Part shown: piece by piece, positions 12,784-40,011 of the stretch
Numbering within the stretch: the first letter of the stretch is position 1
Layout of the letters: every line of letters begins with the position of its first letter
DNA from: a virus
Virus record (IMG/VR): IMGVR_UViG_3300033233_000010
Coordinates: 32,001-96,000 of that record
Reading direction: 5' to 3' (one strand)
DNA length: 64,000 nucleotides
The notes under the pieces: model-generated
Told to the model about the DNA's origin: nothing
Seen by the model: only the letters and a program-made list of their open reading frames with translations
The model's database searches: none
Made by a program: the position numbers and the translations under genes

Positions 12784-13287
12784 CTACCCCTGGCGCGCGT
12801 CATCGGACCCGAGCGACTTGAGGGGCCGGCGCGTGAGCTTCTCCGTCGTCTCCTGGGCCAGTTGGCGAAGCCGCTCGCGCGTGCGCTTGCGCGTCTCGTC
12901 GGCCTGGTGCATGCGCTCGAACTTCTTCTGGGAGAGGTCGGTGATGGTCTGGAATGAGAGCGGAAAGAGCGTGCGCGCCCCCACGGCGCGACCGCCGACG
13001 CCACCCGAGTAGCTCGGGGGCGACTCGACGAGCGGCTTCGTGGCGGAGACCGCGCTGCTCGACTCCGTCTTGGGCTTCTCCTCGGACTGAGGCTTCTGCT
13101 CGATCGTGAAGCCGGTCTTGAGGTTGTACCGGAGATGGCCCTCGCGCATCAGTTCGCCGAGCACGTCGGCGGTCTTGTCGACTGCGCCGAGCGATGCTTC
13201 GGCCACGTCCTTGAGCCGCACGGCGGCGGGCTTCTTGGCCGCGATGGTGTGGACAGCGCGCAGGACGGCTTCTTGTTCCGCGTTCAC
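12784..13287 (-). CDS. Winged-helix-like protein
   Basis: VRLKDVAE…VLGELMREGHLRY; C-terminal LTRRPLKSL. Confidence 0.65.
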   Translation of the reverse strand: MNAEQEAVLRAVHTIAAKKPAAVRLKDVAEASLGAVDKTADVLGELMREGHLRYNLKTGFTIEQKPQSEEKPKTESSSAVSATKPLVESPPSYSGGVGGRAVGARTLFPLSFQTITDLSQKKFERMHQADETRKRTRERLRQLAQETTEKLTRRPLKSLGSDDARQG

Positions 13288-13610
13288 AGAGACCCCCGAG
13301 CTGCCTCCACGATGCCTTCGAGGAAGGCGAGGGCATGAAGCTGAACCGTACCGTGATCGAGACCGGCGTCTTTGGCGATGGCATCGCAGGCGACCATGAA
13401 CGCCTGCCCGATCGCCTCCGCGCCGTCTTCTTCCTTGAGCTGTGAGGAGACGTAGTCGAACGTCGCTCGCACGACCTCGTCGATCGACTTGCTGTCGGAC
13501 GCGTCGGTCTTGAGCGTACCGGGCTTGGTGGTCGTGACGGCGGGAGCGGGCTCAGCCTTGACCCCGGCGAGAAACGAGTCCAGGTCTTCCGCCAGTCGCT
13601 TGAGGCTCAC
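13284..13610 (-). CDS. Hypothetical acidic protein
   Basis: GTGA overlaps at both ends; GC3-rich codons. Confidence 0.75.
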   Translation of the reverse strand: MSLKRLAEDLDSFLAGVKAEPAPAVTTTKPGTLKTDASDSKSIDEVVRATFDYVSSQLKEEDGAEAIGQAFMVACDAIAKDAGLDHGTVQLHALAFLEGIVEAARGSL

Positions 13611-13843
13611 AGGGGCGAGCCTCCGGGATTGACGTTGGCATCCTTCGAGTCGACGTAGAAGACGCCGCCCTCGGACGACGGCTTGCCGCCGGTGCGCTTG
13701 ACGGCGAGCCTGCCGCCCGAGACGGACTGGACGTAGCCTTTGTCACCGCCGGTGGTCGTCACGTAGTCGCCGACCTTGGCCTCCGCCAGCGACCGGAACG
13801 TCTCGATCGCCTCACGGAGACCGGGCTTGAGCATCTTGTCCAC
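13607..13843 (-). CDS. Putative head-associated protein with LREAIETFRSLAE leader and small beta domain
   Basis: GGAGG RBS; motif shared with three other ORFs. Confidence 0.7.
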   Translation of the reverse strand: MDKMLKPGLREAIETFRSLAEAKVGDYVTTTGGDKGYVQSVSGGRLAVKRTGGKPSSEGGVFYVDSKDANVNPGGSPL

Positions 13844-13902
13844 GACGATCCTCCGCTGACGGGCCTCGACCTCGGTGAACGACGACTTCGCGTCGGCTTG
13901 GA

Positions 13903-14841
13903 CTACGCCAGGCCGTGCTGCCGGACGAACGCCTGGTCGGCGTCCTCGCCGGGACGGATGCCGTCTTCCTGCTCGAAGCGCACGTCGACCTTCTCGCGAC
14001 CCGACGCGTCGTAGCCGGGGCCGGAGACGCCAGCCGTCGAACGCGTGGCCGCGGCCTTGGCCTCGGCGTCGGCGGGGATCGACGCGGCGTCGCCCTTGTA
14101 GTCCTTGTCGGGCTTGACGTGGTCGTCGAACTTGGACTTCGACGCCGTCTGCGCCTTGCCGTCCGGGGTCTTCTGGTCGGGCGCCGGTGCGGGGATGCCG
14201 GCCTCGGCGACGGGTCGGCGACGCAGGTCACCGACTCGGTCTTGGAGCATCGCCGCGGCGAACTCCAGGTCTTCCTGGTCGTTCTTCGGCGTCGACCGGA
14301 AGTTGTCCTGGCCCTCGTCCTCGCGCTGCTTCCCGCGCTGCTCGTGACGCACGTCCACGCGCTCGCGCCCGGTCGCATCGTAGCCGGGACCCTTCACGCC
14401 AGCCGTCGAGCGAGTAGCCGCGGCCTTCGCCTCGGGATCGCTCGGCTCGCTGACCTTGTCGCGCTTGTAGTCCTGCTGGTCCTTGGGCTCGGTGCCCGTG
14501 AACTTGGACTTCGACGCGGTCTGCTTCCCGCTCGCGACCTGGCCTTGGGGGGCGGGCGCCGGGAGGGCCGCTTCGTTGACCGAGCGGAACCGCTGGATTG
14601 CGTCGTGGAGACTCATCGTGTTCAACTCCTCGCCGAGCGTTTCGCGCCCGTATTCTCGTGGCTTCGTCGGATGCTTGATGGGGACCGTCCGCATCGCACC
14701 CTTGAACCGTCCGTGCCGAGTGGGTTTCGCTCCGCGAATGACCTTCTTGCGGATCTCGCCGAGGAGGCGGTCGACATCGGGGTGGTCCATCTCGGAAAGC
14801 TCCACACGTTTATGGTAACTCGCGGACGGGGTTGGCGTCAC
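13903..14841 (-). CDS. Putative head-internal polyprotein with two tandem repeat units
   Basis: Duplicated ~85-aa unit (E|A.PAPAP…QTASKSKF…EAKAAATRSTAGV.GPGYDA.GRE.VDVR.EQ); possible in-frame second start ATG 14616 with GAGGAG RBS. Confidence 0.8.
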   Translation of the reverse strand: MTPTPSASYHKRVELSEMDHPDVDRLLGEIRKKVIRGAKPTRHGRFKGAMRTVPIKHPTKPREYGRETLGEELNTMSLHDAIQRFRSVNEAALPAPAPQGQVASGKQTASKSKFTGTEPKDQQDYKRDKVSEPSDPEAKAAATRSTAGVKGPGYDATGRERVDVRHEQRGKQREDEGQDNFRSTPKNDQEDLEFAAAMLQDRVGDLRRRPVAEAGIPAPAPDQKTPDGKAQTASKSKFDDHVKPDKDYKGDAASIPADAEAKAAATRSTAGVSGPGYDASGREKVDVRFEQEDGIRPGEDADQAFVRQHGLA

Positions 14842-15765
14842 CTACTCTCCTGTTCCGGCTGGGCCGGATCGGCGGATGAGCGGTGGAGCAGTCTTCTTGG
14901 ACCTGCGCTTGCCCCCCTCGCTTCGGACATCGACGGCGCGCTGTCCGTTGATGGACCCCATGAAGGGACCAACGGACAACGCGACCGTGGCTTCGGCGAG
15001 AGTGGCGCGAAAGGCTCGGATGACTTCGCGCAGCTGCTCGTAGGTGTGGAGGATCTTGTGCTGAGCGCTCGGCTTGGTTGTGATGAAGCGCTTCCCGGCG
15101 TGCTGGACGACGTGAACGGGTCGACCGATCTGACTGCGGATCTCCTTCGCCTGTCGGAACAGGTGGACCGTGTGGGCGAGCGTCCCAGGCTTGTGCCGTG
15201 TGGAGAGAACTCCGGCGGGTTCGGCGGGAGCGGGCGGCTTGGGCGTCGGCTCCGCGGGCGGTTGAGCGCCGAGCCACGCGAGCTTGGCTCCGAGCGCGGG
15301 CGAAGGCTTGGTCTCGCGAGCGCTCGCGTGCTGCGCGTCGGGTGCAGCGGTCGGGGTCGCCTGGGTGCTTCGTTTGGCGGGTAGCCACGAGTGTGAGGCG
15401 GGGCGCGCGGTCGCTGCCGGCGTAGCGGCGGGCTCGGCTTGGGGAGCATGGCGAGAAGCGGGTGCCCGCGATGTCGACGGCTTGAACGGAGTGTGAGCGT
15501 GGGGCTCCGTAGTCGCGTAGTGGGCGCGCGACTGGGTAGCCGCCTTCGGGTCAACAGCGGGACGTTGGGCGCGCTGCTTCCGCGCGGCGAGAGCCTGAAA
15601 GGCCGGGTGCCTCGGCTGGGGTCGCATCTGCGGTGTCGATGGCGGCGGTCCGCGACGACGCTTCCGCTCGATGGGGAAGTTCTTGGGCATCTCGCGCTGG
15701 GGCGAGACGAGGCCCTTGATGCGCGAGAGTAGGCCCTCGTCGACGATCCGTTCGGACAGGCTCAC
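14842..15765 (-). CDS. Basic Pro/Ala-rich putative head-internal protein
   Basis: MSLSERIVDE leader; internal LREVIRAFRATLAE motif. Confidence 0.75.
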   Translation of the reverse strand: MSLSERIVDEGLLSRIKGLVSPQREMPKNFPIERKRRRGPPPSTPQMRPQPRHPAFQALAARKQRAQRPAVDPKAATQSRAHYATTEPHAHTPFKPSTSRAPASRHAPQAEPAATPAATARPASHSWLPAKRSTQATPTAAPDAQHASARETKPSPALGAKLAWLGAQPPAEPTPKPPAPAEPAGVLSTRHKPGTLAHTVHLFRQAKEIRSQIGRPVHVVQHAGKRFITTKPSAQHKILHTYEQLREVIRAFRATLAEATVALSVGPFMGSINGQRAVDVRSEGGKRRSKKTAPPLIRRSGPAGTGE

Positions 15766-15780
15766 CTTGGCCGGCGTCTC

Positions 15781-16962
15781 CTACTTGTGGTGGAACTTCT
15801 TGAGGGTTTGCGCCAACCTCGCGCGCTTGCCTTCCTTGCCACCCTTCTCGGCGGCGGCGGCGAGCTTCCCGGCTGGGATCTTCTTGCCCTCGGGCACGCC
15901 CATCTGCTTGTGGAGCGCGCCCTTCTTCATGTGCATCGCGGCGATCCACTTCTTCGCCTCGTCGAGCTGCATGCCGGCGGTCCGATCTTCGGCGACCTCG
16001 GCCTGGGCAGACGCGTCGCGAAGCGAAGCGGCGCCGACACGCGCCTCGCGGAGCATGCTCGCGCTCGGCTGGCTCACGCCCTCCTTGACGGTGATGTCGT
16101 CCTTGGCGAGCGGTGCGGTGCCGCCGTTGGCCGAGTTGAACTGGCCGGGCTCGACCTCGGCGGGCGAGCGGAGCTTGCCGCCGAGACCCTTGAGCGCCTT
16201 GCCGATCTTCTCGCCCTTGGGCTTGGGCACCGACTCGCCCTCGACGGCGGGCTCGGCGTCGACGGGCGGAGTCGTCGTCTCGGTCGTCGGCTTCACTCCG
16301 AGGTCGGCTGCGTTGCGGAGCCTGGCCGCGTCGTCGGCGGCGAACTGCGCGATGTCGGCGATCGTGAACGCCGGCTTGTTGCTCACGCCGGTTCCGAGTT
16401 CGAGCGCCGGGTTCGACTCGTGCTGAGTCTTGAGCGACTTTTCCAGCGCAGCGCCGTCGACCAGCATCGGTCGTTCGAGGAACGCCGTGGGGAGGCGCAT
16501 CGCGGCTCCGGCGTTCCCGGACGTGGTCATCTCGGCGACCAGCTTGTCCTTCAGGGCCGGGAGATCCTCGATCGCGATGTTGAGGATCTCACCGGCGACG
16601 AACTGCTTGATCGCCTTGGCGTCATCACCACTGACACCGTACTGGCGCATGTCGGGCACGCGTCCCATGCGCATCGCCACCTCGGCGATGCCCATGACGA
16701 TCGTCGGGTTGAGCCCACGATCCTCGGCGAACTTGTCGATCTCGGTCTTCCGCGAGTGGAGGACCAGCTCGCGCGTGTCGGGCGACATGAGCTTGGCGTC
16801 GCGGCTGAACCCGCCCACCGGCGCTTCGAGCGGCGAGTCTTCGTCCATGCGCATCGCGGCGGGAGAGTTGAGCGCAGCGCCGGGACCGCCGCTACGAACC
16901 CGATGGTTCGCCGGATCGCTCGGGTCCCACTTGTTCTTGCCGTTCTTTCCGTTGGTACTCAT
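15781..16962 (-). CDS. Putative virion protein, paralog of 16959..18692, with a C-terminal basic peptide
   Basis: Shares three modules with the upstream paralog; ends in AKKWI…ARLAQTLKKFHHK. Confidence 0.8.
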   Translation of the reverse strand: MSTNGKNGKNKWDPSDPANHRVRSGGPGAALNSPAAMRMDEDSPLEAPVGGFSRDAKLMSPDTRELVLHSRKTEIDKFAEDRGLNPTIVMGIAEVAMRMGRVPDMRQYGVSGDDAKAIKQFVAGEILNIAIEDLPALKDKLVAEMTTSGNAGAAMRLPTAFLERPMLVDGAALEKSLKTQHESNPALELGTGVSNKPAFTIADIAQFAADDAARLRNAADLGVKPTTETTTPPVDAEPAVEGESVPKPKGEKIGKALKGLGGKLRSPAEVEPGQFNSANGGTAPLAKDDITVKEGVSQPSASMLREARVGAASLRDASAQAEVAEDRTAGMQLDEAKKWIAAMHMKKGALHKQMGVPEGKKIPAGKLAAAAEKGGKEGKRARLAQTLKKFHHK

Positions 16963-18692: not shown

Positions 18693-18809
18693 CGGGGTCC
18701 CTCGGTTGCCGTCTCGGGCTCTAGACGAACTGGAATAGGGTAGCACCTAAGAGTCTACCCCTAAAGCCCGTTCGATGCCTAGCGTCCGCCGACGACCCAT
18801 CGGCCCAGT

Positions 18810-20032: not shown

Positions 20033-20035
20033 GCG

Positions 20036-20347: not shown

Positions 20348-20359
20348 GATCGTTCCTTC

Positions 20360-20911: not shown

Positions 20912-20928
20912 GGGTCCTCCTTTTCCTT

Positions 20929-21586: not shown

Positions 21587-21587
21587 C

Positions 21588-26758: not shown

Positions 26759-26781
26759 GGACTAATCTCTACGTCTCCGCT

Positions 26782-27879: not shown

Positions 27880-27891
27880 TCAGAGGGCTCC

Positions 27892-28794
27892 TTACGCGGT
27901 CGGGAACGGCGCCCGAACCATGATGGTATCCTTATTCTTGACCTTGACACGCATCTTGATCTGCGTCGCAGAGACCCATTCCGCGATGCCGTTGCCAGAG
28001 CCGTCGCCCTTCGGAAGATCCTGCCCGTTCAGGTGAACTTCGATTCGCCCATCGTCCTTGAAAGCGGCACCCGACGCCGGGAGTGTAACATTCAGATCGC
28101 CAGACACCGGGGCGGGCGAGAACAGACCGCCGCCATAGGCCCCCGTCCGAATGTTGATGGCGGTGTCCGGGACGACCGTCTCGACGAACGGCCCGATGAC
28201 GACTTCGCGCAGCTCGAAGGAGTTGAAGTCGAGAATCGCCTCGTCCGGTCCACCGAGCGTGAGCGTGTTGTTGGGCACGATGATGGTCTTCGTCGGGTCG
28301 ACGACCGGGAAGCCGTCCACTTCGCGCACTTTGACGCCACTGCCGATGACCTCGCCCTCCTCGTCGAGTTCGAGCTGATGAACCCGCGTCTCCAGGTCGT
28401 CGATGATCGGCCCGAGATCGGGGAAGGGCGGCGGCGGGGGCGCGGGAGCTGGGAAGACCTGACCCGACGGCAGGACTGTGCTGCCCTGGCTCTCGAAAGT
28501 CACCTTCTGAACGACCAGCTCAACCGGAGTCGAGGAGAGAACAGCGTCGAGCGCCTGCTGCCGCTGCGCCGGATCGTGGAAGCGGAAGACGACGTGGTCC
28601 TCGCGAACGACCGAGACCTGCCAGTCCTCCACGTCGGGCAGGACGCGTTGAATCGTTTGGGCGAGGATCGTCTTGGGCTTGTCGGCGGCGAACCTATCCG
28701 CACGCTCGAAGTAGATGAACATCGCGTAAATGTAGAATGCCGGACACTCCGCGATGTCCCTCCCGAAAGGCAGGTTATCGTAGAGGTAGCCCAA
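27892..28794 (-). CDS. Putative tail/structural protein
   Basis: C-terminus HLNGQDLPKG…WVSATQI is paralogous to the downstream gene. Confidence 0.7.
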   Translation of the reverse strand: MGYLYDNLPFGRDIAECPAFYIYAMFIYFERADRFAADKPKTILAQTIQRVLPDVEDWQVSVVREDHVVFRFHDPAQRQQALDAVLSSTPVELVVQKVTFESQGSTVLPSGQVFPAPAPPPPPFPDLGPIIDDLETRVHQLELDEEGEVIGSGVKVREVDGFPVVDPTKTIIVPNNTLTLGGPDEAILDFNSFELREVVIGPFVETVVPDTAINIRTGAYGGGLFSPAPVSGDLNVTLPASGAAFKDDGRIEVHLNGQDLPKGDGSGNGIAEWVSATQIKMRVKVKNKDTIMVRAPFPTA

Positions 28795-28805
28795 GGGAGC
28801 CCATC

Positions 28806-29015
28806 CTACAGTCGCTTGGCGATGCCGTTCATTTCTCCGATGACCTTGTCGAGCTGGCCGACAACGTCACGGAGGTCGGACGGCGTGCCCGTGCTCGCCG
28901 CCCGCTTGAGGTGGGACAGGTGAGTGTTCGCCAACTGTCCGAGGTCGCGGAGACGGACTCCGAGCATCGGGCTGTGCGATTCCGCGAGTCCCGCGATCTC
29001 GTCAAACCGGCTCAT
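28806..29015 (-). CDS. Small helical hypothetical protein
   Basis: AGGAG-like RBS; MSRFDEIAGLAE leader. Confidence 0.7.
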   Translation of the reverse strand: MSRFDEIAGLAESHSPMLGVRLRDLGQLANTHLSHLKRAASTGTPSDLRDVVGQLDKVIGEMNGIAKRL

Positions 29016-29024
29016 GTCGGACTC

Positions 29025-29297
29025 CTACTTGGTGTTGTGCTGAGCGGGCTTGCCCGTGCGCAGCTGCGCCGCCGAGACCTTGGCCGTGGTCTGGTCGTTG
29101 TCGCCGTACTTCGGGTCCGGCTTCGGACGGTAGCGCGTGTTGGGGTCGTGCTTGCCCGTCGTCGAGGTCGTCTCGGGCGGCGTCTTGCCGTACCACGAGA
29201 CGGTCTCGGGCGTCGACTTGTCCTCCTCGCCGAGCGACAGAAGGGGGCGCCGCGTGAGCGTGATCCCGAGTCCGGCCATCTGGTCGAATGCACCCAT
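29025..29297 (-). CDS. Small hydrophilic hypothetical protein
   Basis: AGGAG RBS; LTRRPLLSL motif. Confidence 0.7.
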   Translation of the reverse strand: MGAFDQMAGLGITLTRRPLLSLGEEDKSTPETVSWYGKTPPETTSTTGKHDPNTRYRPKPDPKYGDNDQTTAKVSAAQLRTGKPAQHNTK

Positions 29298-29306
29298 GTC
29301 GATCTC

Positions 29307-29669
29307 CTACCCGTTCGGAACGGTGACTTGCCTGAAGTGGGCGTCGAACTCGTTGAACGACGCGATGCCGACGAAGATCGAGCCCCTGGTGAGGATGATC
29401 TTCGAGACGATGTTCAGAACGTCGACCCCATCGTAGAGGTCGATCTTCTTCTTCTCACCGCCGTTCATCGAGGTCGTGTTCCACGGCGATGCGGTCTCGA
29501 CCGCCAGGCTGGTTCGCGCGCTGCGGATCGTGAACGTCGTGTCCTCGTGGCACCCGATATAGAGGACCGGGATGACGGCGAGCGCATCGCGATGCACGAT
29601 CACCAGCTCGTCGTTGGAGGAAACGAGCGGCCAGAAGTCCGTCTTGACTCGGAAGTCGCTCAGTCTCAT
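29307..29669 (-). CDS. Hypothetical beta-rich protein
   Basis: AGGAG RBS; GC3-rich codons. Confidence 0.7.
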   Translation of the reverse strand: MRLSDFRVKTDFWPLVSSNDELVIVHRDALAVIPVLYIGCHEDTTFTIRSARTSLAVETASPWNTTSMNGGEKKKIDLYDGVDVLNIVSKIILTRGSIFVGIASFNEFDAHFRQVTVPNG

Positions 29670-29735
29670 CGACCGCTCCTACCCATCGGACCCATCTTCG
29701 CAGACGGAGCCCGAGAACGCACGCCAGTTTCGCAC

Positions 29736-30473
29736 CTACACCGCTACCTTACCAGACACTCGGGCGCTTCCGCCCTTCCGTTTGCGGTGCCTGGCGAGCA
29801 GTGCCGAGTACCGATCGTGCGGGGCTCCGGTGATGGGGTGGGCGCCTACCGGCTTGCGATTGGCCGCTTTGCGCGTCGGAGCCACGAACGCCATCTTGGC
29901 CTTCTTGGCGCCGCCGACGCGACTGATGCTCCCGACGCTCGCGAGCGGACGACGGGAGAGGGTCCGGTGACCGCCGGAGGCAACCTTCGGTATGACGGCC
30001 TTCGGCTTGGCGGCTCCCGGCGTGGCGGTTTTCGGCTGGGCGGCCTGGGCGAAGGGATCGACGAGCTTGCGCGTGACGCCCATGGGAGCCGCGGGCGCGG
30101 CGGTCGCTACCGGCTTCTTCGCCTTCGGCTTGCGCGGTTTCCGCAGCTTCTTGGTACGCCCGGTGTCGCCGTGGCAGTGCGCGCCGATGCGTGTCGTGCC
30201 TTTCGGGCACGGCGCGCTGGCGAGCGGACGGCGAGCGAGGCTGGTGACTGGATGGGCGGGAGCCTTCGGAACGGCGAGTGGAGCGGCCTTGGGAGCGGTC
30301 TTCGGAGTGCCCTTCGGCGCTGCTGTGGGAGCCGCTGTGGGAGCCTTTGGAGCGGCCTTCCCACCGACCGGCTTGGCGTACTTCTTGACGATGGCCTGGA
30401 TTCCCTCTCGGGCCCTGGTACCCCACTCGTCGAGCGACCGGAAGGCCGCGATGGCTTCGCTCAGCTCGTCCAA
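29736..30473 (-). CDS. Highly basic Lys/Ala/Pro-rich (histone-H1-like) putative DNA-condensing head protein
   Basis: MDELSEAIAAFRSLDE leader; APKAAP repeats; two RRPLAS motifs. Confidence 0.7.
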   Translation of the reverse strand: MDELSEAIAAFRSLDEWGTRAREGIQAIVKKYAKPVGGKAAPKAPTAAPTAAPKGTPKTAPKAAPLAVPKAPAHPVTSLARRPLASAPCPKGTTRIGAHCHGDTGRTKKLRKPRKPKAKKPVATAAPAAPMGVTRKLVDPFAQAAQPKTATPGAAKPKAVIPKVASGGHRTLSRRPLASVGSISRVGGAKKAKMAFVAPTRKAANRKPVGAHPITGAPHDRYSALLARHRKRKGGSARVSGKVAV

Positions 30474-30476
30474 GGC

Positions 30477-30842
30477 TCAGTCTCCAGCGATGACCGATTC
30501 GACCGATGTCGCGTTGGGTCCGGTGGTGATGAAGATCCCGGGGATACCGGAAGTGCTCGACCACTGGCCGTCGCCGGGGCCGAACTTGAAGCCGGCATCG
30601 GTGCTGACACCGATCTTGAGCGTGACCTCTTGGTCGGTCCGAAGGAAGACCCGCTTGGCGAGCGTGACGCCACCCATCGGGAGGGGCACGTTCGTCTGGA
30701 GCCCGGCGATGACCTGCGGCGAGGTCGTGGTGACCTCGGTCACGTCCTTCGAGTCCTGGGTCGTCTTCTTGGTCTCCGAGACGTTCGCGGCGTTGATGAC
30801 CTCGAAGGTCCCCTGCATCTTGACGGTTCTCGTAGCAGCCAT
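30477..30842 (-). CDS. Putative structural beta protein
   Basis: Thr/Gly-rich; GGGAG RBS. Confidence 0.7.
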   Translation of the reverse strand: MAATRTVKMQGTFEVINAANVSETKKTTQDSKDVTEVTTTSPQVIAGLQTNVPLPMGGVTLAKRVFLRTDQEVTLKIGVSTDAGFKFGPGDGQWSSTSGIPGIFITTGPNATSVESVIAGD

Positions 30843-30899
30843 CGGGCCTCGCTCCCTGCCTTGGGATTCTACTCGTTCGGGTCGAAACTCGAAATGAGC

Positions 30900-31916
30900 T
30901 TACTTGCTCCCGCGTCGGCCCGGCTTCTTGGGCTCGATGGGCGGCTCCGGCTCCGGCTCCAGGGGTTCGTCGAGGATCACGACCACATCGTTGTCCGAAT
31001 CCTCGGCTGCGACCGGCGGCGGCTGCGGCGGCGCTGGCGGAGCCGGAGGCGCTCCGATGCGGTGAACGGTCCTCGGAGCGGGGTCGCGTGGGAAAACAGG
31101 TAGCCCGGTCGCGGGGGCGGCCTCGGCGACGACCACCGGCGCCTTTGGATCTCGGGGGAAGGCGGGGAGCGTCGACGGCGCGGCCTGGATCGCCGGGATC
31201 TTCGGCTCGAACGCCTCGATGATGTAGAGGAGCTTGTTTCCAGCGCGGCCTGGCATCGACGCGGAAACGGCCTTGCCGTTGACCCGGAGCACGAGCTTCT
31301 CGAACGCCTCAGCCGTCGGGAGCCACGAGTTGATACGACCCGCGGGGATGTGCTCGTTCTGCCCGAGCTTCACCTCGATGGCGAGCTGGCCGCCCGGCTT
31401 GAGGAGCTTGAGCGCCACGACGAGCGCCTCAACGGGGAAGACGGCCTCCTCGAAGCACTCCGGCCAGATGACGAGGTCGAAGACCCCGAGCGATTCGAGG
31501 TGCCCTTCGGTGGGCCATCCGCCGAAGCAGCGGGTTCGGTGCTGGTCCGGGATCTCCTCGCTCTCGTTCTTGCGGACGGGGTGGACCTCGTTGAGCACCC
31601 CCGTAACGAGATCGAGACCTGCGCGGAAGCGGGCGCGGGGCTCGATGGAGACGACCTCGGCGACGCCCAAGTCGAGCGCAGCTGCGGGGAGCCCGCCCAG
31701 CCCGGCCCCGATAACAGCCACACGGTGTTCTTCGGCGAAGTCGGCGAGCCCGAGCTTGGCCTTGAGGAGCGCGATGTAGTCGTAGGGGTCGCACGGCCCA
31801 GGCAGCTCCAGCTCGTGCCGGAGGACCGGGATCTTGAACGTCGTCGGATCGCCCGGCGCGAATGCCGATGAGTGCCGGATGCGATCGACAGCCGCGACCA
31901 ACTCGTCGTGTTTCAT
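30900..31916 (-). CDS. Class I SAM-dependent methyltransferase-like (CmoB/DUF1698-like) with a Pro-rich tail
   Basis: VAVIGAGLGG…VVSIEP; FDLVIW…LLKPGGQLAIE; WLPT. Confidence 0.6.
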   Translation of the reverse strand: MKHDELVAAVDRIRHSSAFAPGDPTTFKIPVLRHELELPGPCDPYDYIALLKAKLGLADFAEEHRVAVIGAGLGGLPAAALDLGVAEVVSIEPRARFRAGLDLVTGVLNEVHPVRKNESEEIPDQHRTRCFGGWPTEGHLESLGVFDLVIWPECFEEAVFPVEALVVALKLLKPGGQLAIEVKLGQNEHIPAGRINSWLPTAEAFEKLVLRVNGKAVSASMPGRAGNKLLYIIEAFEPKIPAIQAAPSTLPAFPRDPKAPVVVAEAAPATGLPVFPRDPAPRTVHRIGAPPAPPAPPQPPPVAAEDSDNDVVVILDEPLEPEPEPPIEPKKPGRRGSK

Positions 31917-31937
31917 GCGTCCTCCAACCGGCCTATC

Positions 31938-32675
31938 TTACGGGAAAAGCGTCTCGCCGGTCTCGTGGTAGTAGTCGGCGCCGAATCTGTGAAGGGCGCG
32001 CTCTGGGGCGTCCTCCCACTCGACCGCCTTGATCGTCTCTGGGGTGGAGATGTGAGTGGTGCGCCCGACGAGTCCTGGGAGCCGTTCCAGCATGTCCTCC
32101 GGTACGGAGGAGAACCGCTGGCTCCACGCGTTCGCCGCCGCTTCCCGACCAGGGAACCCGACAGCGCGAAGCAGCTTCTCTGGGGAGACGAGGATAACGC
32201 CGTAGGGCGCGAGTCCACCGGCATCCCGATCAAACTCTCCCCACCGGACGAACTTGACGTGCATCGTCGGTTTGGGATCGTCTGGCGGAGACGCAGCGTT
32301 GAGCTTCTCCTCAATCATCGCAGCTACCGGCGGATCGTCCTCGTCAAAAGAGGCCGATCCGGTCCTCCATCTTTCGAGCATCGACTCATCGGTGGAGCTG
32401 ATCTTTTCCAGGTCGATCGCTTCCTCTGGGAAGGAGCCGCCGACGACGATCCGAAACTTGTCCTGCCCGGCGACGATGTCGCGCACGTAATCCGCGACGA
32501 CCGCATAGCTCCCTTCGGCGATGTAGGCGCCGCAGACGACGAGCGCGATCTTGGCATCGACCGCCTTGGCGAAGACGACGGGATGAAATGGCGCGATGTG
32601 CCCCACGTCCGGCCACACGAGTCGACTCCGAACCTTGTTGTCCAGAACGAAGCGAACGACCGCGTCGAGGTTCAC
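31938..32675 (-). CDS. Hypothetical protein
   Basis: GTG overlapping the TGA of the giant gene; coding-like only from 32675. Confidence 0.7.
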   Translation of the reverse strand: MNLDAVVRFVLDNKVRSRLVWPDVGHIAPFHPVVFAKAVDAKIALVVCGAYIAEGSYAVVADYVRDIVAGQDKFRIVVGGSFPEEAIDLEKISSTDESMLERWRTGSASFDEDDPPVAAMIEEKLNAASPPDDPKPTMHVKFVRWGEFDRDAGGLAPYGVILVSPEKLLRAVGFPGREAAANAWSQRFSSVPEDMLERLPGLVGRTTHISTPETIKAVEWEDAPERALHRFGADYYHETGETLFP

Positions 32676-35600
32676 TTGATCACCTCTTCGAGAGGCCGCT
32701 TGTCGGGTCCGGCATGGGTGATGCCCGCCGCTTTGAGCTTCTCGATCACCGGCTTCGGGTCGATGTCGTACTTTGAGAGGTTGAGCTGCGCGAGCCACTT
32801 CCAGAAGGAGATGCGATCGCCGACCATCACCTCCTTCGAGGGACCGCTGGCGCTGGCAGCAGCAACGGCTTCTGCGACACAGACCATTCGGTTCTCCTGC
32901 ACGGAGCCGGTGCGATTCGACACTTGGCCGTGGCTGTAGTCGACCTTTGTGCCGTAGTTGTCGCCCTTGTGGTGCCACGCCGACGTTTCGAGGAGAAGCC
33001 GGGGATCGAACTGGGCCCACCCGCTGTCGTGCTTGACCTTGGAGATGAAGAGGAAGATGTCGTTCGCGCCGCCGCTTTGCACGTCGGCACCGGGCGAGAT
33101 ACCGCCCAGCGCCTTGCCGTAGACGCCGAGGCCGATGTGGGCTCGCTTCTCGGTCGCGTAGATGCCGCCCATGTTGATCATGGATAGGAGACTCTCCTTC
33201 TCCTTTCCGTAGGTGAGGCTCGCTTTGGAGAGCGTGAGCCCATCGTCCATCCACTTCTTCATTTCCTCGCCTGTAACATCGAAGCGGTTGAACGCGGCTC
33301 GCCCCTCACCCGAGTCGTGGGCGAGCGGCTGATAGTTGGCGTTGCGCTTGTTGCTCCCGTCGGCGTTCTTCTTGTAGACAGCCTGGCCCGCCGCCGTCTT
33401 GAGTTTGCCGTTGGCGGTACGCTCGGGTTCGTAGCGCGGATCGTAGCCGAGTGGCCCGCGACCAGCGGCGGTCGGCGTCTGCTTGAACTTGTCGACCCAC
33501 CACTCGATCTTCTTCTCAGCCGAACCACTCGGCTCATCGGCGAGCTTGACCGAGCCCACTCCGTAGCCTTCGATGCGCCTGAGCCACGCCATGCGCCGGA
33601 GGTAGGTCAGTTCGTGGTCCTTCTCATCGGCTGGTCGTATGTCAGTGCCGAGAATGTGCGCGACCTTCTTGGTGTAGTCGGCGATCTGTTCCTTTGTTGC
33701 CCCTTCGGGAAATTGGACGCGGACGGTTCCGCCGCGCGCCGGGTACTTTCGTTTGGAGCCGTGCCCCATGTGCCCAGGAACGTAATGGACCAGCAGGCGC
33801 TTGGTCGGAGCCAGCTTGCCGCCAGCGACCGCTACGCCAGTGACGGCGTCGGTAAGATCCAGCTGGTAAGTGTCCATCTCATTTTCGTCTTTATCGAACG
33901 GCTTCCCGAAGGTCCCGTCCCACGTCGCCTCCTTGGAGACGAGATTGTCTCCTGCCGGATTGCTCTTCAACTTGGCCTCGGGGACCGGGTAGTAGCTGAG
34001 CTTGGTCGCGGCCAGCTTTCCAGCCTTGACCGCGTCGGCGTCGGCTGCTTTCGTGTCATCCTCGTACTTCTTGAGGCTCTTCTGGTAGTCGGCTTCCGCC
34101 TTGGTCTTCTTCTCCTCCCACGCGGCTTTGGCCGTCTCGACGGCCTGCGCGTGAGCGGCTTCGACGTTCGCCTTGGCCTTCTTCTGGGCAGCGAGGTGTG
34201 CTTTCGCCGGCTCGAAGCGCTTGATTTCCTGCTCGTCGGTGGGGATCTCGCTGGCCGCCTTGAGCGCATAGGACCCGTCGGGAGCGAGGTGTCCGAGTCG
34301 ATTGAACTCGGACAGGTAGTGCTCGCCCGCCGCCTTCTCGACCGGATCGGCAGACTGGGCGGCGGCGCTGGCGGCGTCGATGCCCTGCTTCAAGTAGTGG
34401 TACTTGACGCCGCCCGCGCCTTCCTTGAAGTGCTTGTAGACGTACTTCTCGATCTTGGTGACGGGGACGACGGTCCCGTCGGGGAGAGTTTTCGTAGCGG
34501 AACTCGTGTCACCGGCTGCGCCGATGATCTTCTTGTGGAAGTCGCCACCCTTCGCACTGAACGTCGGCTTGGGCGGCGGCTCGAAGGGCTGGATGTCGGG
34601 CGGTTCCGGCGCAGCGATGGCCGAAGCACCACCGGCTGCACCCGGCAGTCGAGATTCGAGCTTCGTTCGCGCTCCGGTGTCGAGAATGAACGTCGCCATC
34701 GTGTTGTTGCCCAGATGGAACATCTGGAGACGGCCATCCTTCACGTCTTGGCCGCCGACCATGAGATCGACACCGGCGTGTCCCTGCTTCACGCGAACGT
34801 GATCATCAGGGATCTGCGACATAGTCGGCAACTTGGGATCGAGCCAGTTGTGCGGCGGTCCGGGCTCGGTCGCGGCAGCGAGCGCCTTCTTGTCGACCTT
34901 CGCAACGACGGGCTTCCCTTGGAGGAATTCGTCGATGCCCATCTGGTCGCGGACCTCGGACTCGATTGCCGAGATGGGACGCGCGTCGCCCTTCGCCTTG
35001 AGCGAAGCGGCGCGCTGCTTGGCGAGCTGCGCGTAGAAGTCTCCGACCTCGGAGCGGATCTTCTTTCGGCGCGCGTCCATTCCATCGAGGAACCCGTCGA
35101 CGGTCTGATCGGACTTGACAGCCGAGTAGCCGGCGACGGCTCCGAACTTCTGCACGCTCCCTTCGGCGTAAGGCTTCCACATCTTCTTGTAAGTGTCTGA
35201 CGGGATCGACTCGGCGCGAGCGATGACGCTCTCGAACTCGGGGCTCGTGAGCGGCATGAGCGCAATGTCCTCACCGTCCGACCAGTCGCGAAGCATCCTT
35301 CCAGGGAAACCCTTACCCTGGTCTTGGCTGACAGACTGGAAGCCCTTGACCGTAGGACTCGGGGCTTCCCACTTGAGCTTCTTCGTGAGCGTCATCGACG
35401 AGTCGAAGAACCGCGCGGCCTGCCCATGATCGACCGGCGTGACGTTGCCTTTGTCGTCGGCGACGAAATTTCCGTTGTGATCGTCGTAGTCGTCGTTGAG
35501 CCAGTTGGCGATCACCGCCTTCTGGAGCTGCTTCGCGATCTTGTCCTTGTGGACGTGCGTCTTCCACGGCTCGTGCTCGCCGTTGTCACGGAACGAGGGG

Positions 35601-38600
35601 TTGGCCTCGAAGTGCTGCATCACACCGGTCACGCCGTTGTGGTCGGTCTCGACCCAGATGTGATCGGTCGCCCCGATGCCGAGGAGCTTCTGCAAGCGAC
35701 CCGCTGCGGCTTCTCCGTGCGCGACGAACGGAGCCCCGGCATCCCCCTTGAACATCCAGGCGTGCGTCGCACCGGTCTTGAACGTCTTGCCGGTCGGGTG
35801 GAAGTTCTTGTCTGTCGCGAGGAACGACTTGTCGTGGGCGCCGCCGCCGCCGAAGGCGCCCTTCTTCTTCCAGCCAGGATGCGTGAGCGGCGGGGGCGTC
35901 GGCCCCGAAGTCGGCTTGTCAGTGCTGATGAACTTGTCGAGCTGCTCCTTGGTCATCCCGATCGGATTCGACTCGGGCGTCTCGTCGGTGATCTCCGGTT
36001 CCGGTGCCGGAGTGGGCTCCGGCGCGATCGTCGGCGGCGGTGCGGTGGGCGTCGCCGGGAGGGCGGCCTTGACCTTCTTGAGCATCGACTCGAAGAACTT
36101 CTTCTGCTTGGGCGAGGCGAAGTCGCCGCCCCACTTCTTCTGGACGAAGACCTTGTGGGCGATGTCGACGAACGAGGCGTGGTGCTCAGCGTTGAGCGTC
36201 CCGGCTGGAGCCGCCTTGATCATCGCGAGGTAGTCGTCGGGTTGGGCGGCTGGCGGATCGTGCGTCGTCGGCGATGGAGCAACTCCCTCGGGCGCATGAG
36301 GTTTGGCGGCGGCGTCTTGGACCAGTTTCTTGATGAGGTCTTTGCTGACTCCGGTGACGCCAGCAGCGCCCCAGTCGTTCTTGAACTCGGCGTGGATCTT
36401 CGCCGCGACGCCAGCGAGCTTCCAATCGCTCGGCTCACCGCCCGCCGTCAGGTGCGCGCCTCCGGCCAGAGCTTCGGCAATCTTGTGGTCGAGGTGCTCC
36501 TTCTGCTGAGGTGTGAAGTGATGCGCACTCATGATCTTCTGGTGCTTCGTGTAGGCGAAGTGCGTGGGCGAGGCGGTCGTTGGAGGCGGAGCCGGCCCCT
36601 CGGCGGCTGGGTGCGGAGCTGGCGGCGCAGCGGGAGCCGGTTCGCTCGCAGCCTTTGCCGCGTGGGACGTGTGCCACACGGCCCAGAGGTCGTGGAGCCA
36701 GTGGTTCTGGTTGGTCCCGTAGAGCGTCGAGAACGGCTTGTGTGCTTCGAGCGCCGGCTTGATCACCGACTCGGCGGCTCCGGGAACGAACGTCCACTCG
36801 TCAGGAGTCTCCTTTTTGGCGCGCTCGTCCCAGTAGTTGAAGACCTGTGTCTTGAGCGCGCCGAGTGAAGGCACGGGCTTCTCGTCTTCCGGCGGCGTGG
36901 TCTCCTTCGCGACCTCGTCGGCCAGCCCCTTGAAGCCCTCCGGCGAGAGGTGCGCGATCCCCGAGTTTGCGATCGCAGCCACGAGATCGCCCTTGGAGGT
37001 GAACGCCTTCTTGGCGATCGCCTTGAGCATCTCCTTCTTGTCGGCGGAGAGTGCATCCCACGACTGATTCGTGTGGTTGGCCCAGGCGTTTCCGGCCACC
37101 ATGTCAACGGCGGCCTGAGAGAGCGGCTTGCCGTTCTGGGCGAGGTGCTGCGCGAGGGCCGACTTGAACTCGTGCTGGTCCTTGTTGAGCGTCGCGTACT
37201 TGACCGCGAGCTGCTTCGCCGCCTGGTGAATCTCCTCCTTCTCCTGGTTCGAGTAGTCGGCGTAAGGCTTGGGCTTCTCCTTCGCGTTCTCGATCGACGA
37301 GTTGACGATGTCGAGCGTGGTCGAGGCGTCGGGGATCTTGCCGTACTTGTCGGCAGCGATCTTCTGGAGATCGTGGATCAGCTCGCCCTTGTCGACCGGC
37401 TCCTCGGCGTCGGACTTCCCCTTGATGAAGGTATCGGCCATCTTGGCAAGATGGGCGACGTGCTCTGGTTCGAGCTTGCCCATCTCCTTCAGGTGCTCTT
37501 TGGCGATGTCGTGCGGGATCGCGTGGACCTCGTGCGCCGCGTTCTCGATACCCACATCCTTGAGCAGCTGCTTCGAGTGGGACGGGAGCATTCCGTGAGC
37601 GGCTTCGCCCGCGTGCTTGAGAAGGTGCTCCTTCACCTTCTCCTTGAGCTTTTCGTGTTGGTCGGCTGAGAGTTGGGTCGACGGGCCCGGAGGAGGGGGC
37701 GGGGGCGGCGTCGGCTTGACCGTCGCAGCTTTGAACTTCTCCAGCGCTCCGGTCATCAGGGCGTGCGCATCGGCGTGCTTGAGCGGGATGCCGGCCTTGT
37801 CCAGTTCGAGCTTGAACTTGTCCAGTAGCTCCGGGCTCGGCTCGGCGGACTTGGCGTGGGTGACTGGCTTCTCAGCGATCACCTCGTTGGCGATCTTGCC
37901 GATCTTGTCCTTCTCCGTCGGTGTGTAGTCGGAGATGGCCCACGGATGGTGTCCGCTTGGGCCGGGCGCATCGGGGTCGACCTCCGGCTCGGGCGCCTTC
38001 GCCGGCTCCGCCGCTGCACCGAGCTTCGACGCCTTCATCGCGGCGTGCAGTTCGTGATCCACGTCGCCTGGGTGGAGCGGCAGACCGGCCTTGGCGAGCT
38101 GCTTGTCGATCTCGTCCTTGGCCGCCAGGTAGGCTTGTTCCTTGCCGGCGACGCCGAGCCCGGCGTGCCCACCGGCGTCCATGACGACCTTGTTCACGAT
38201 GTCGGCGATCTTGTCCTGCGAGTCGGGGTTGTAGTCGCCGAGGCTTTGGGGCATCTTGGCCGGTTGGGCGACCTTCTCGGGCACTTTCGCCGTTTGGGTC
38301 TTCTGAGAGGCGGCGTGCGCCACGTCTCCAGCGACTTGGCTCGAAATGTGGAGGCCGAGGGCATCGGCGGCGTATTGCTTGAGCTTGCCGATCGCTTCGA
38401 CACCGAAGTGGGTGGTGTGCGCGATCGACGCGGCATAGGCGTCGAGAGCTTCCTTCTCGTGCGTGGTGAGCCCGCCGACGGTCGCAACCGACTCTGGCTC
38501 GTCCTTGGGGCCTTGGGGCTTCTCGGGCTCCTTCTCAGGCTTTGTCTCCGGCTTGGCCGGCGGCTTGGAGACGTGTTTCAACACCTCACTCGCCGCGCCG

Positions 38601-39361
38601 CCAGCAATGGAGATGCCCTTCTTCGAGAGGGCGTCCATGAAGCCGTGGTGGTCGCTCGGATGAAACGCCGCGGCGGTGTCGATAACCGTCTTCTTCTGAC
38701 CGATGGTGAGTCCTTCCAGACCGGCGGCAGAGATAGCCTTGTGGTAGTAGACGAGCTGCTCAGGTTCCTTGGGCTTCTCGGGCGCCTTCTCGGGCTCTTG
38801 CTCCGGCTCCTCCTCGGGTTCCTCCTCGGGTTCCTTCCCAGGCGCCTTGCCCGCGGCGTGCCCAGGATGCTTCACCTCGGCGTGCGGGTCGTGCGGAACC
38901 TCGAAGTGGTGCTCGGTCCCGGCGTGAACGAGGTGGCCCTTCTCGTGGTGGAACTCGATGTCGGCAAGTGGCGGGTGAGCCTCGTTCGAGCCCGAGTGGA
39001 CGATCTGGTGATGCTTCTCGGCGTGTCCGGCGTGAACGTCGCCAAAGGCGGTGAGCTTGTCGGTGTCGGGGTGCTTCTTGCCGTACTTCTTGGAGAACTC
39101 CGACAGCATCTTCCAGCGCGTAGTGGTGAAGTTGAGCCACGCGGTCGCAGTCTGGACGCGAAGTTTCTGACACTCGTGCGCGTACGTGCCCGGCGTCAGC
39201 TGGCTGAGCTTCGCGATGGCGGCGTTGAGGTTCTTGCGACGCGTCGTGATCGCGGCGAGAGCGCGCTTCAGCTCGATCGGGTTCGCCTGTTTCGGCGGAA
39301 CGTTGGCCGGCGGACCTTTCGCCGGAGGGCAGTTGATCTCCATCAAGAGACGGTTCAACAC
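32672..39361 (-). CDS. Giant 2229-aa protein: helical repeats plus HipA/PI3-PI4-kinase-like domain
   Basis: About ten L/Y-S/T-xx-E/Q-K helical repeats; GGGG loop, WMFK, HGEAAA, DDHNGN and VDHG motifs. Confidence 0.85.
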   Translation of the reverse strand: MLNRLLMEINCPPAKGPPANVPPKQANPIELKRALAAITTRRKNLNAAIAKLSQLTPGTYAHECQKLRVQTATAWLNFTTTRWKMLSEFSKKYGKKHPDTDKLTAFGDVHAGHAEKHHQIVHSGSNEAHPPLADIEFHHEKGHLVHAGTEHHFEVPHDPHAEVKHPGHAAGKAPGKEPEEEPEEEPEQEPEKAPEKPKEPEQLVYYHKAISAAGLEGLTIGQKKTVIDTAAAFHPSDHHGFMDALSKKGISIAGGAASEVLKHVSKPPAKPETKPEKEPEKPQGPKDEPESVATVGGLTTHEKEALDAYAASIAHTTHFGVEAIGKLKQYAADALGLHISSQVAGDVAHAASQKTQTAKVPEKVAQPAKMPQSLGDYNPDSQDKIADIVNKVVMDAGGHAGLGVAGKEQAYLAAKDEIDKQLAKAGLPLHPGDVDHELHAAMKASKLGAAAEPAKAPEPEVDPDAPGPSGHHPWAISDYTPTEKDKIGKIANEVIAEKPVTHAKSAEPSPELLDKFKLELDKAGIPLKHADAHALMTGALEKFKAATVKPTPPPPPPPGPSTQLSADQHEKLKEKVKEHLLKHAGEAAHGMLPSHSKQLLKDVGIENAAHEVHAIPHDIAKEHLKEMGKLEPEHVAHLAKMADTFIKGKSDAEEPVDKGELIHDLQKIAADKYGKIPDASTTLDIVNSSIENAKEKPKPYADYSNQEKEEIHQAAKQLAVKYATLNKDQHEFKSALAQHLAQNGKPLSQAAVDMVAGNAWANHTNQSWDALSADKKEMLKAIAKKAFTSKGDLVAAIANSGIAHLSPEGFKGLADEVAKETTPPEDEKPVPSLGALKTQVFNYWDERAKKETPDEWTFVPGAAESVIKPALEAHKPFSTLYGTNQNHWLHDLWAVWHTSHAAKAASEPAPAAPPAPHPAAEGPAPPPTTASPTHFAYTKHQKIMSAHHFTPQQKEHLDHKIAEALAGGAHLTAGGEPSDWKLAGVAAKIHAEFKNDWGAAGVTGVSKDLIKKLVQDAAAKPHAPEGVAPSPTTHDPPAAQPDDYLAMIKAAPAGTLNAEHHASFVDIAHKVFVQKKWGGDFASPKQKKFFESMLKKVKAALPATPTAPPPTIAPEPTPAPEPEITDETPESNPIGMTKEQLDKFISTDKPTSGPTPPPLTHPGWKKKGAFGGGGAHDKSFLATDKNFHPTGKTFKTGATHAWMFKGDAGAPFVAHGEAAAGRLQKLLGIGATDHIWVETDHNGVTGVMQHFEANPSFRDNGEHEPWKTHVHKDKIAKQLQKAVIANWLNDDYDDHNGNFVADDKGNVTPVDHGQAARFFDSSMTLTKKLKWEAPSPTVKGFQSVSQDQGKGFPGRMLRDWSDGEDIALMPLTSPEFESVIARAESIPSDTYKKMWKPYAEGSVQKFGAVAGYSAVKSDQTVDGFLDGMDARRKKIRSEVGDFYAQLAKQRAASLKAKGDARPISAIESEVRDQMGIDEFLQGKPVVAKVDKKALAAATEPGPPHNWLDPKLPTMSQIPDDHVRVKQGHAGVDLMVGGQDVKDGRLQMFHLGNNTMATFILDTGARTKLESRLPGAAGGASAIAAPEPPDIQPFEPPPKPTFSAKGGDFHKKIIGAAGDTSSATKTLPDGTVVPVTKIEKYVYKHFKEGAGGVKYHYLKQGIDAASAAAQSADPVEKAAGEHYLSEFNRLGHLAPDGSYALKAASEIPTDEQEIKRFEPAKAHLAAQKKAKANVEAAHAQAVETAKAAWEEKKTKAEADYQKSLKKYEDDTKAADADAVKAGKLAATKLSYYPVPEAKLKSNPAGDNLVSKEATWDGTFGKPFDKDENEMDTYQLDLTDAVTGVAVAGGKLAPTKRLLVHYVPGHMGHGSKRKYPARGGTVRVQFPEGATKEQIADYTKKVAHILGTDIRPADEKDHELTYLRRMAWLRRIEGYGVGSVKLADEPSGSAEKKIEWWVDKFKQTPTAAGRGPLGYDPRYEPERTANGKLKTAAGQAVYKKNADGSNKRNANYQPLAHDSGEGRAAFNRFDVTGEEMKKWMDDGLTLSKASLTYGKEKESLLSMINMGGIYATEKRAHIGLGVYGKALGGISPGADVQSGGANDIFLFISKVKHDSGWAQFDPRLLLETSAWHHKGDNYGTKVDYSHGQVSNRTGSVQENRMVCVAEAVAAASASGPSKEVMVGDRISFWKWLAQLNLSKYDIDPKPVIEKLKAAGITHAGPDKRPLEEVIK

Positions 39362-39370
39362 GAGAGGCTC

Positions 39371-39676
39371 CTAGTCGTCATCGAGAGAACGCCGGAGATC
39401 GAGCGGAAGCTGCGTCTTGAGGGGTCGTCTTGTCGGAGTCGAAGGTTCGCGCCTCGCCTTCGCCTCGCCCATCGGCTTCGCCTTCACGATCCGAGCAAAG
39501 ACCGACCGATGGCACTCGAACGTCTCGAACTGCCGCCCACAAGTCAAGCACTCTCGGATGCGCATCTTGAGGTCGCCGAAGTCAAAGCCAGGCGGGCCAC
39601 CCATCTGCTCCATCTGGATCAGAGTCTTCTTGACGCGCGACTCGACGGTTCCACAGCTGGGATTAGGACACTTCAT
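39371..39676 (-). CDS. NrdR-like Zn-ribbon protein lacking the ATP-cone
   Basis: MKCPNPSCG..ESRV…RIRECLTCGRQFETFE mirrors the NrdR N-terminus. Confidence 0.65.
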   Translation of the reverse strand: MKCPNPSCGTVESRVKKTLIQMEQMGGPPGFDFGDLKMRIRECLTCGRQFETFECHRSVFARIVKAKPMGEAKARREPSTPTRRPLKTQLPLDLRRSLDDD

Positions 39677-40011
39677 CGGCTGCGCAGCCTTCCCACTCCG
39701 AAGCGCTTCTCCGGTGCGGTACGATGCACTGGACGCGGGCCGGTCTGGGGGCGATGGTCCTTCAACGACTGGGCGACACGCCCGTGGTAGAGATGGCGCT
39801 GACGCCGGTTGTACTTGGCGCGCTCGAAGCGTCGCCCGGAGAAGCGGTCGACGATCTTGCGGAGTCGGTTCGTGATCGCATCCGCCTTGTGCGGCTCGAC
39901 CACGCTCTCGGCCACATCATCGCCCACGCCATCGGTAACGATGACCCCGCCGGAGGGCGATGCCTCGATGGTGAGGAGCGGGCGTCTGGCGAGTTTCAGC
40001 GGATAATGCAC
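39673..40011 (-). CDS. Hypothetical basic protein
   Basis: Fills the gap between terL and the NrdR-like gene; carries LARRPLLTI; start uncertain. Confidence 0.5.
   Translation of the reverse strand: MHYPLKLARRPLLTIEASPSGGVIVTDGVGDDVAESVVEPHKADAITNRLRKIVDRFSGRRFERAKYNRRQRHLYHGRVAQSLKDHRPQTGPRPVHRTAPEKRFGVGRLRSR

Follow-up and report, generated by a model that had tools for sequence, protein, structure and literature searches.

A 64,000-nucleotide stretch of viral DNA (positions 32,001 to 96,000 of the IMG/VR record IMGVR_UViG_3300033233_000010; called the window below, and numbered from its own first letter) encodes a short peptide with the core RRPL in several small proteins, and the locus raises the question of what proteins sharing this peptide have in common. 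The record, G000, is 121,783 bp long with a CheckV completeness of 42%. Our answer is that the RRPL motif is a portable docking or address tag, a reading to which we assign a probability of about 0.75. The best explanation as a whole, which we consider probable, is a portable short linear motif that tethers unrelated proteins to one common partner. The motif lies in coding frames, is enriched, is selected and conserved as a peptide, occupies terminal or disordered positions on basic and diverse cargo, and is confined to one clade. The first-pass annotation of this DNA had not recognized it as a described phage motif, and we likewise found no description of the RRPL tag in the phage literature.

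A six-frame scan of the window placed all six RRPL cores on the minus strand (12820-12831, 29241-29252, 29943-29954, 30222-30233, 39419-39430 and 39976-39987). These are the six positions that the first-pass annotation had reported, its 27-nt spans corresponding to exactly nine residues, L-x-R-R-P-L-x-[ST]-x; the Arg codons that it quoted were correct, and its five unrelated small proteins were borne out by six sites in five proteins with no similarity beyond the motif, a 245-aa K/A/P-rich protein holding two of the sites. Because the window has a G+C content of 64%, its lists of open reading frames (ORFs) are crowded with shadow frames. The motif-bearing minus-strand frames had a G+C content of 0.71-0.94 at third codon positions (GC3) and a low one at second positions (GC2), which is a coding signature. 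By the same measure, a 788-aa plus-strand ORF at 28737..31103 that covers three of the sites was rejected as the shadow of four minus-strand genes, a typical high-GC trap.

We called 173 genes in G000 with a codon-usage heuristic, so that N-terminal tag positions depend on the choice of start; the protein-collection entry P0116 and the C-terminal tag cases are independent of these calls. In the called proteome, the pattern [LP].RRPL.[ST] matched seven times against a mean of 0.015, and none of 1000 within-protein shuffles reached seven; a composition-preserving count of this kind was the check proposed with the original observation. A position-specific scoring matrix (PSSM) applied to the same proteome returned seven sites at ≥24.8 bits and one RRPI variant at 19 bits over a background of ≤11 bits. 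The seventh site and the RRPI variant lie outside the window, where two further carriers are encoded at G000 genome positions 30229-30411 and 10847-11650, and the scan of the whole called proteome found no tag copies outside the small basic carriers. In G001, a related complete genome of 275,101 bp with terminal repeats whose genes were also called here, RRPL.[ST] occurred seven times against 0.24 expected, and 0 of 400 shuffles reached that count.

The tag is biased toward protein ends. In G000 and G001 together, 12 of the 16 sites lie within 20 residues of a terminus, and nine of these start in the first 20 residues (P about 6e-6); three are C-terminal, the other four being internal. In G001 and the related G003, often just 2-8 residues separate the start codon from the tag. 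AlphaFold2 (AF2) models put the tags in coil or in ends of low predicted local distance difference test score (pLDDT) and, in the 112-aa family, ahead of a long basic helix. The isoelectric point (pI) of the carriers was 9.3-11.9 in 14 of 15 cases (Mann-Whitney p about 1e-5 per genome), and these results agree with the earlier description of disordered, basic segments. Apart from the tag, the carriers have no similarity to one another. Two of them are enzymes tagged at the N-terminus: G001 has a NUDIX hydrolase of this kind and G003 a HAD_SAK_1 phosphatase. The G001 orthologue of this phosphatase is without a clear tag, indicating that the tag is gained and lost among orthologues. Instead, the G001 protein (94318-95037, compared with the tagged L087:966-1547 of G003) has an internal SLYDRIIES, and an in-frame upstream VRRRGLK may represent a degenerate tag if an upstream start is used. 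As in docking short linear motifs generally, the tag forms a conserved island in a disordered or variable context, recurs on unrelated proteins and comes and goes among orthologues.

To describe the constraint on the motif, we pooled 21 distinct sites from this and related genomes, among which orthologous sites are not all independent. Third codon positions carried 0.14-0.95 bits (0.23-0.73 within the RRPL core) as compared with 1.2-2.0 bits at positions 1 and 2 of the core codons, and Arg codons of both the CGN and AGR families were present. Since synonymous changes are tolerated and Arg is encoded from either codon family, selection acts on the peptide, as the first-pass annotation had argued from the codons in the window. 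The DNA 5' of N-terminally tagged genes was no more similar than that of random gene sets; this result and the free synonymous positions ruled out a DNA-level repeat or a mobile leader cassette. An exhaustive profile search of the 112-aa family recovered the tag variants LIRTPLKTV, LIRRPLQLL, LTRRTLSIL, LTRRALKTL, LMRRPLPVL and LTRRPLLPL. From these variants and the zinc-ribbon tails described below, the skeleton of the tag is L(-2), R(0), L(+3) and Φ(+6), Φ being a hydrophobic residue, and R(+1) and P(+2) are the usual residues between R(0) and L(+3). The Ser/Thr position (+5) was the least constrained of the named positions, being V, L, I, P or N in orthologues, and the conserved residues were the leucines and the first Arg.

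Close relatives among reference phages were absent, with no megablast match and a terminase identity of at most 30%. The large terminase subunit (39996..42014, minus strand), which served to find relatives, has metagenomic counterparts from 86% identity downwards, and the relatives used here are terminase-linked loci from IMG/VR and Joint Genome Institute (JGI) metagenomes found by alignment, leaving out those at 78-86% terminase identity. The gene directly after the terminase kept its N-terminal tag in every relative with a terminase identity of at least 56% (one variant reads LVRSPLKTI), and a second tag site ~9.4 kb downstream was kept likewise. In full records, matches to the DNA pattern exceeded those to a reversed-pattern control and were strand-biased (7 versus 3 in G001, 5 versus 0 in G003 and 2 versus 0 in G002). 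The full record of G004, a sister at 44% identity, gave no DNA-pattern match and no tag on its called proteins; as a tag-less sister for phylogenetic profiling, it shares only 12 proteins.

Despite the fact that G000 and G001 have only 54 of 173 proteins in common, mostly at 30-55% identity, five syntenic carriers keep the tag between them, in pairs or triples. These carriers are the 112-aa protein, a zinc ribbon whose tag reads RRSLRT in G001, a 90-aa protein, a C-terminally tagged protein beside the ribonucleotide reductase block, whose G000 form (167 aa) and G001 form (367 aa) are similar only in the tail, and a tiny gene 5' of a conserved 224-aa gene (60, 51 and 57 aa in G000, G001 and G003, otherwise not alignable). 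In the 112-aa family, the tag stands as a conserved island before a linker of ~5 to 30 residues. A codon-restricted scan of 2.9 million viral contigs returned terminal L-x-RRPLKTL from this lineage only, and pattern matches outside the clade were in-domain or non-coding; the tag is restricted to this clade. Two side observations concern the same loci. A 254,565-bp contig in the protein collection carries identical terminase, 112-aa and zinc-ribbon proteins, and the real genome is therefore probably that of a jumbo phage of about 250-290 kb. Many terminase homologues (P0008, P0009, P0020, P0036 and others; L006) bear inteins or homing-endonuclease domains (PF14890, PF14528 and PF13392).

The zinc-ribbon gene lies directly 3' of the terminase region in all relatives, and two carriers always come after the terminase, stop and start codons overlapping. 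Pfam PF22811 matched 12 of 12 aligned members of the family, and its profile matched solved NrdR structures with an E value of 1.7e-9. On these profile matches, the protein is homologous to the DNA-binding domain of NrdR but has no ATP-cone. A P2 Ogr/Delta-type activator was rejected as its identity; Pfam gave NrdR-type and general zinc ribbons, with no Ogr_Delta among the best 25 of 27 families. In a search of a large protein collection, the tail kept R-[RSKQ]-x-[LIM] in 68 of 72 members, including RSPL (28), RRPL (26) and RKPL (7), the next residues mostly being RT, LN or KT; two copies of the motif stood in a few members. The carrier resembles the NrdR repressor in its N-terminal DNA-binding domain but differs from it in lacking the ATP-cone, in having a short tagged tail instead and in being encoded beside the terminase. 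The phage also encodes a class II ribonucleotide reductase (7909-10965), and NrdR boxes are therefore possible targets of the zinc-ribbon protein.

The window's carriers, all of them minus-strand genes, show the range of contexts in which the tag is found. The 112-aa protein (39673..40011; pI 11.5) overlaps the terminase stop and has a GTG start with a ribosome-binding site, GGAGAGGA; the same start was chosen in an independent call, P0116. Its tag, LARRPLLTI (39967..39993), occupies residues 7-15 and is coil in the AF2 model. The adjoining 101-aa NrdR-type zinc ribbon (39371..39676), assigned through Pfam PF22811 and the solved NrdR structures, carries PTRRPLKTQ (39410..39436) in its C-terminal tail. 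The 90-aa carrier (29025..29297; GC3 0.94) begins with an M-[SG]-x-F-D-x-Φ leader and so has leader and tag together, with LTRRPLLSL (29232..29258) at residues 14-22, near the N-terminus; its orthologues in G001, G002, G003 and L118 retain LTRRPL[KL]TL. The 167-aa carrier (12784..13287; GC3 0.90) is modeled by AF2 with an N-terminal winged-helix-like domain, a disordered linker, a long helix and a C-terminal tag, LTRRPLKSL (12811..12837), nine residues before the C-terminus; the tag begins at the end of the helix spanning residues 112-153 and continues as low-pLDDT coil, and the domain matched MntR, DtxR and LexA winged helices in Foldseek with an E value of about 0.01. The 245-aa K/A/P-rich carrier (29736..30473; pI 11.8) is an insertion with no counterpart in G001 and has two internal tags, LARRPLASA (30213..30239) at residue 79 and LSRRPLASV (29934..29960) at residue 172. 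It shares an N-terminal leader, L-x-E-A-I-x-x-F-R-S-L-x-E, with the minus-strand gene at 13607-13843, a similar protein being encoded at 76415 in G001, and therefore combines this leader with two RRPL tags on one protein.

If the tag is a docking signal, its position on a flexible N- or C-terminal end, or sometimes in an internal disordered stretch, would allow it to tether the carriers to one partner, and we infer that a single reader exists. The oldest carrier appears to be a truncated NrdR-type zinc ribbon beside the large terminase, with the motif in its C-terminal tail, and in the clade of the window the same peptide has been grafted onto at least 12 further families, mostly small, very basic and DNA-associated, the NUDIX and HAD enzymes included. 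Our leading guess, a tentative one, is that the reader belongs to a T4-type head-assembly or packaging machinery (terminase, portal or prohead core); the carriers would then be recruited to the capsid, or packed inside it, for delivery together with the DNA. A packaging signal had been among the first proposals for the motif, and it is a possible one. The guess comes from the flanking of the G001 head genes by carriers, from the terminase-linked carriers and from the co-occurrence of the tag with a leader like the T4 capsid targeting sequence (CTS). G001 has matches above cut-off to a gp21-type protease (PF03420) and a gp23-type capsid protein (PF07068), and two tagged genes lie just upstream of this gp21/gp23 head module; G000, being 42% complete, has gp23 fragments only. 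The leader, M-S-x-[FY]-[DE]-x-Φ at the N-terminus, agrees with the determinants of the T4 CTS, and the tag accompanied it in 2 of 3 and in 2 of 8 proteins with the leader (p = 0.004 and p = 0.011).

Several points weigh against this interpretation. The carriers are spread over early-looking, nucleotide-metabolism and structural regions rather than the late head genes alone, some tag copies are C-terminal or internal, and the tag sequence is basic and does not resemble that of the T4 CTS. Only about a third of the families have an L/I-x-E cleavage context after the tag (KTL[DSA]E or SLGE), the rest having TLE, TIE or none, and the PSSM scan of the G000 called proteome found no tag on large structural proteins. 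The oldest carrier is a homologue of a DNA-binding regulator, and for such a protein a transcription or replication hub is at least as good a fit. Finally, gene calls and start codons are heuristic, apart from P0116 and the C-terminal cases.

Such a hub is the alternative that survives best, and we regard it as a possible though doubtful reader: the tag may dock its carriers to host RNA polymerase, a phage sigma-like factor or the phage beta sliding clamp. The DNA binders would then use the tag as an activation or tethering peptide and the enzymes would use it for recruitment. Several carriers consist of a DNA-binding domain and a flexible tail (the NrdR-type zinc ribbon and the winged helix), the tagged enzymes are of NUDIX and RNA-repair-type HAD families, carriers occur in early and metabolic regions, and the phage encodes both a sigma-70 region-2 protein and a DNA_pol3_beta clamp. 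The near invariance of the tag across very diverged phages is also what a highly conserved reader would lead one to expect, and its C-terminal half, L-x-[T/S/L/I/V]-[L/I/V], loosely resembles clamp-binding pentapeptides. However, the tag has no Gln and does not match QL[SD]LF or QLxLxL, and no phage polymerase or other replication enzyme was among the tagged proteins when the PSSM was run over the entire called proteome. The hub also leaves the co-occurrence with the CTS-like leader unexplained.

It is improbable that the motif serves proteolysis, whether as a degron or as a site that a protease recognizes or cuts. It would then be cut by a gp21-type prohead protease, or recognized by a host AAA+ protease (a ClpX-type tether) that times carrier turnover. 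A terminal, disordered location would suit this function, and a Glu often stands at +9 or +10, so that several families have L-x-E (KTL[DSA]E and SLGE); gp21-type proteases cut after L/I-x-E (PMC9026906), and G001 encodes one. However, many copies lack L/I-x-E, having TLE, TIE or none, and cleavage would take off just 5-15 residues. The capsid, scaffold and portal candidates are without a copy, and the likeness to ClpX-tethering peptides is a putative one. An HK97-type cleavage site (K|SLGSDAD) was likewise rejected, as no capsid protein carries the tag.

The first-pass annotation had interpreted the motif as a phage-wide docking or modification signal, such as a basophilic Ser/Thr phosphosite for a kinase-like giant protein. 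Constraint at the protein level, phage-wide occurrence and the appearance of a docking or targeting signal were upheld, but the phosphosite and the kinase were not, and a modification site for a phage or host kinase is now very unlikely. All six window copies have S or T at +5 and two upstream Arg, which favors such a site. However, orthologues have V, L, I, P or N in place of the acceptor, as in RRPLLVL, RRPLQLL, RRTLSIL, RRPLPVL and RRPLLN, and it is the leucines and the first Arg, not S/T, that are conserved. A six-frame search of the phage genomes G000 and complete G001 gave no match to PF00069 (Pkinase) at E values up to 1. The 2223-aa giant protein itself (32672..39343, minus strand) showed no kinase likeness: neither Pfam nor PHROG nor PDB sequences gave a match, and the HRD..N and DFG motifs were absent. 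A PARP-type modifier was also rejected, the sole WGR match being a stand-alone 96-aa protein and not a PARP-type enzyme. A tempting but wrong annotation, a kinase and its substrates, is thereby removed.

The giant protein was also considered as the reader of the tag. Strict tags were present at 8 of 8 loci with the giant gene and at 0 of ~10 loci without it. However, the zinc-ribbon tails in relatives without the giant gene read LVRRPLLNE or LERKPLLNE, and because these tails keep the motif, the giant protein is not required for it. Its nearest Atlas cluster bears the automatic name 'phage head morphogenesis protein', which we treat as a lead only. The protein is A/K/P/E-rich, and just its C-terminal ~1300 residues are conserved in G001 (33% identity). 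The gene is absent from several relatives, where a 338-aa gene stands directly after the zinc-ribbon gene.

The idea that the motif arose by chance, acts at the DNA level (as a promoter, a repeat or a mobile cassette) or descends from a common ancestor of the carriers draws on the abundance of Arg, Pro and Leu codons in high-GC genomes, with RRPL alone occurring 22 times in the six-frame translation, but it was tested and rejected, because shuffles never reached the observed counts in two genomes, the PSSM gap was 24.8 versus 11 bits, synonymous positions are free and upstream DNA is unrelated, the carriers are not alignable outside the tag, and pattern matches outside the clade are in-domain or non-coding.

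Other shared peptides were seen in the same genomes. A C-terminal tag, roughly [SP]-A-[VI]-[DE]-x-L-[AG]-x-L, was present on about 76 small proteins of G001 (L099-L112), mainly at 96-177 kb, and on about 13 proteins of G000 at genome positions 3-23 kb, outside the window. The most over-represented 4-mers of G001 were SAID, SAVD, VDQL and DRLA. RRPL carriers are generally without this tag, and the sister clade G004 has almost none. A second motif, S-[L]-[FY]-[DE]-[RK]-Φ-Φ, mostly right behind the start Met, occurred in 6 proteins of G000, 14 of G001 and 0 of G004. Its places are 28806-29015 and 29025-29297 in the window, 10847-11650 in the G000 genome and 72102, 79474, 107837, 108641, 150585, 186053, 208607 and 208921 in G001, and it also lies inside an acidic 416-aa protein just 5' of the prohead protease. 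This motif is similar to the capsid-targeting determinants of T4 and is found together with the RRPL tag.

A bolder proposal, which we hold to be rather unlikely, is that the lineage runs a modular peptide-address system, in which the tail peptide of a truncated NrdR-type regulator beside the terminase would have been copied onto at least 12 unrelated proteins as clients of one reader. Alongside two orthogonal tags, an M-S-L-[FY]-[DE]-R-Φ leader and the S-A-[VI]-[DE]-x-L-[AG]-x-L C-terminal tag of about 76 small G001 proteins, it would direct much of the proteome to separate destinations. The nine-residue tag is subject to strong purifying selection in huge phages that have diverged widely, and its spread from one conserved family to unrelated cargo, enzymes included, is visible. 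Its reader, once found, would show how large phages route small accessory proteins and would provide a handle on many orphan genes; should the reader prove to be the head machinery, foreign proteins could be loaded into capsids with the tag as a natural signal.

To our knowledge, docking motifs that run through a phage proteome are well established for a few systems only, such as the T4 CTS and the clamp clients. A signal of a different kind, the twin-arginine translocation (Tat) signal, has an n-region [ST]-R-R-x-F-L-K followed by an uncharged hydrophobic h-region of 12-20 residues and an A-x-A site. Many RRPL carriers do have [TS]-R-R-x-L-[LK] near the N-terminus. However, they lack the A-x-A site, copies also occur C-terminally and internally, and in every N-terminal carrier charged residues follow the tag within 3-8 positions. 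With the h-region missing, the RRPL tag is not a Tat signal.

Clamp-client docking peptides include the bacterial beta-clamp motif QL[SD]LF or QLxLxL, the gp45-binding tails of T4 and PIP boxes. Like the RRPL tag, they are short motifs on flexible termini of many unrelated DNA-transaction proteins that share one conserved pocket, and the phage has its own beta clamp. In contrast to them, the RRPL tag is off consensus, with no Gln and a core of R-R-P-L-x-[ST]-L, and no phage polymerase or repair enzyme is tagged.

The T4 CTS takes up the first ~10 residues of its precursor. In it, residues 4 and 7 serve targeting and residues 8 and 10 processing, with cleavage after L/I-x-E (PMC9026906). The T-even internal proteins are a diverse set with only the CTS in common (PMC3012670), and T4 Alt shows that propeptides are possible at both ends (PMC9026906, PMC3012670). 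The RRPL tag resembles the CTS of the gp21-processed internal proteins (IPI-III) and Alt in that a short peptide is the sole common part of diverse small, often basic proteins and enzymes, in its N-terminal bias and in the gp21/gp23-type head genes of its lineage. It differs in its unrelated twin Arg-Pro-Leu sequence, its C-terminal and internal copies, its inconsistent L/I-x-E, the presence of carriers in early-looking and metabolic regions and an oldest carrier that is a zinc-ribbon regulator homologue; the separate M-S-x-[FY]-[DE]-x-Φ leader in the same genomes resembles the CTS far more than the RRPL tag does. Taken together, these analogies suggest that the RRPL tag would be comparable in its working to the T4 CTS or to clamp-client peptides, yet it fits the sequence definition of neither.

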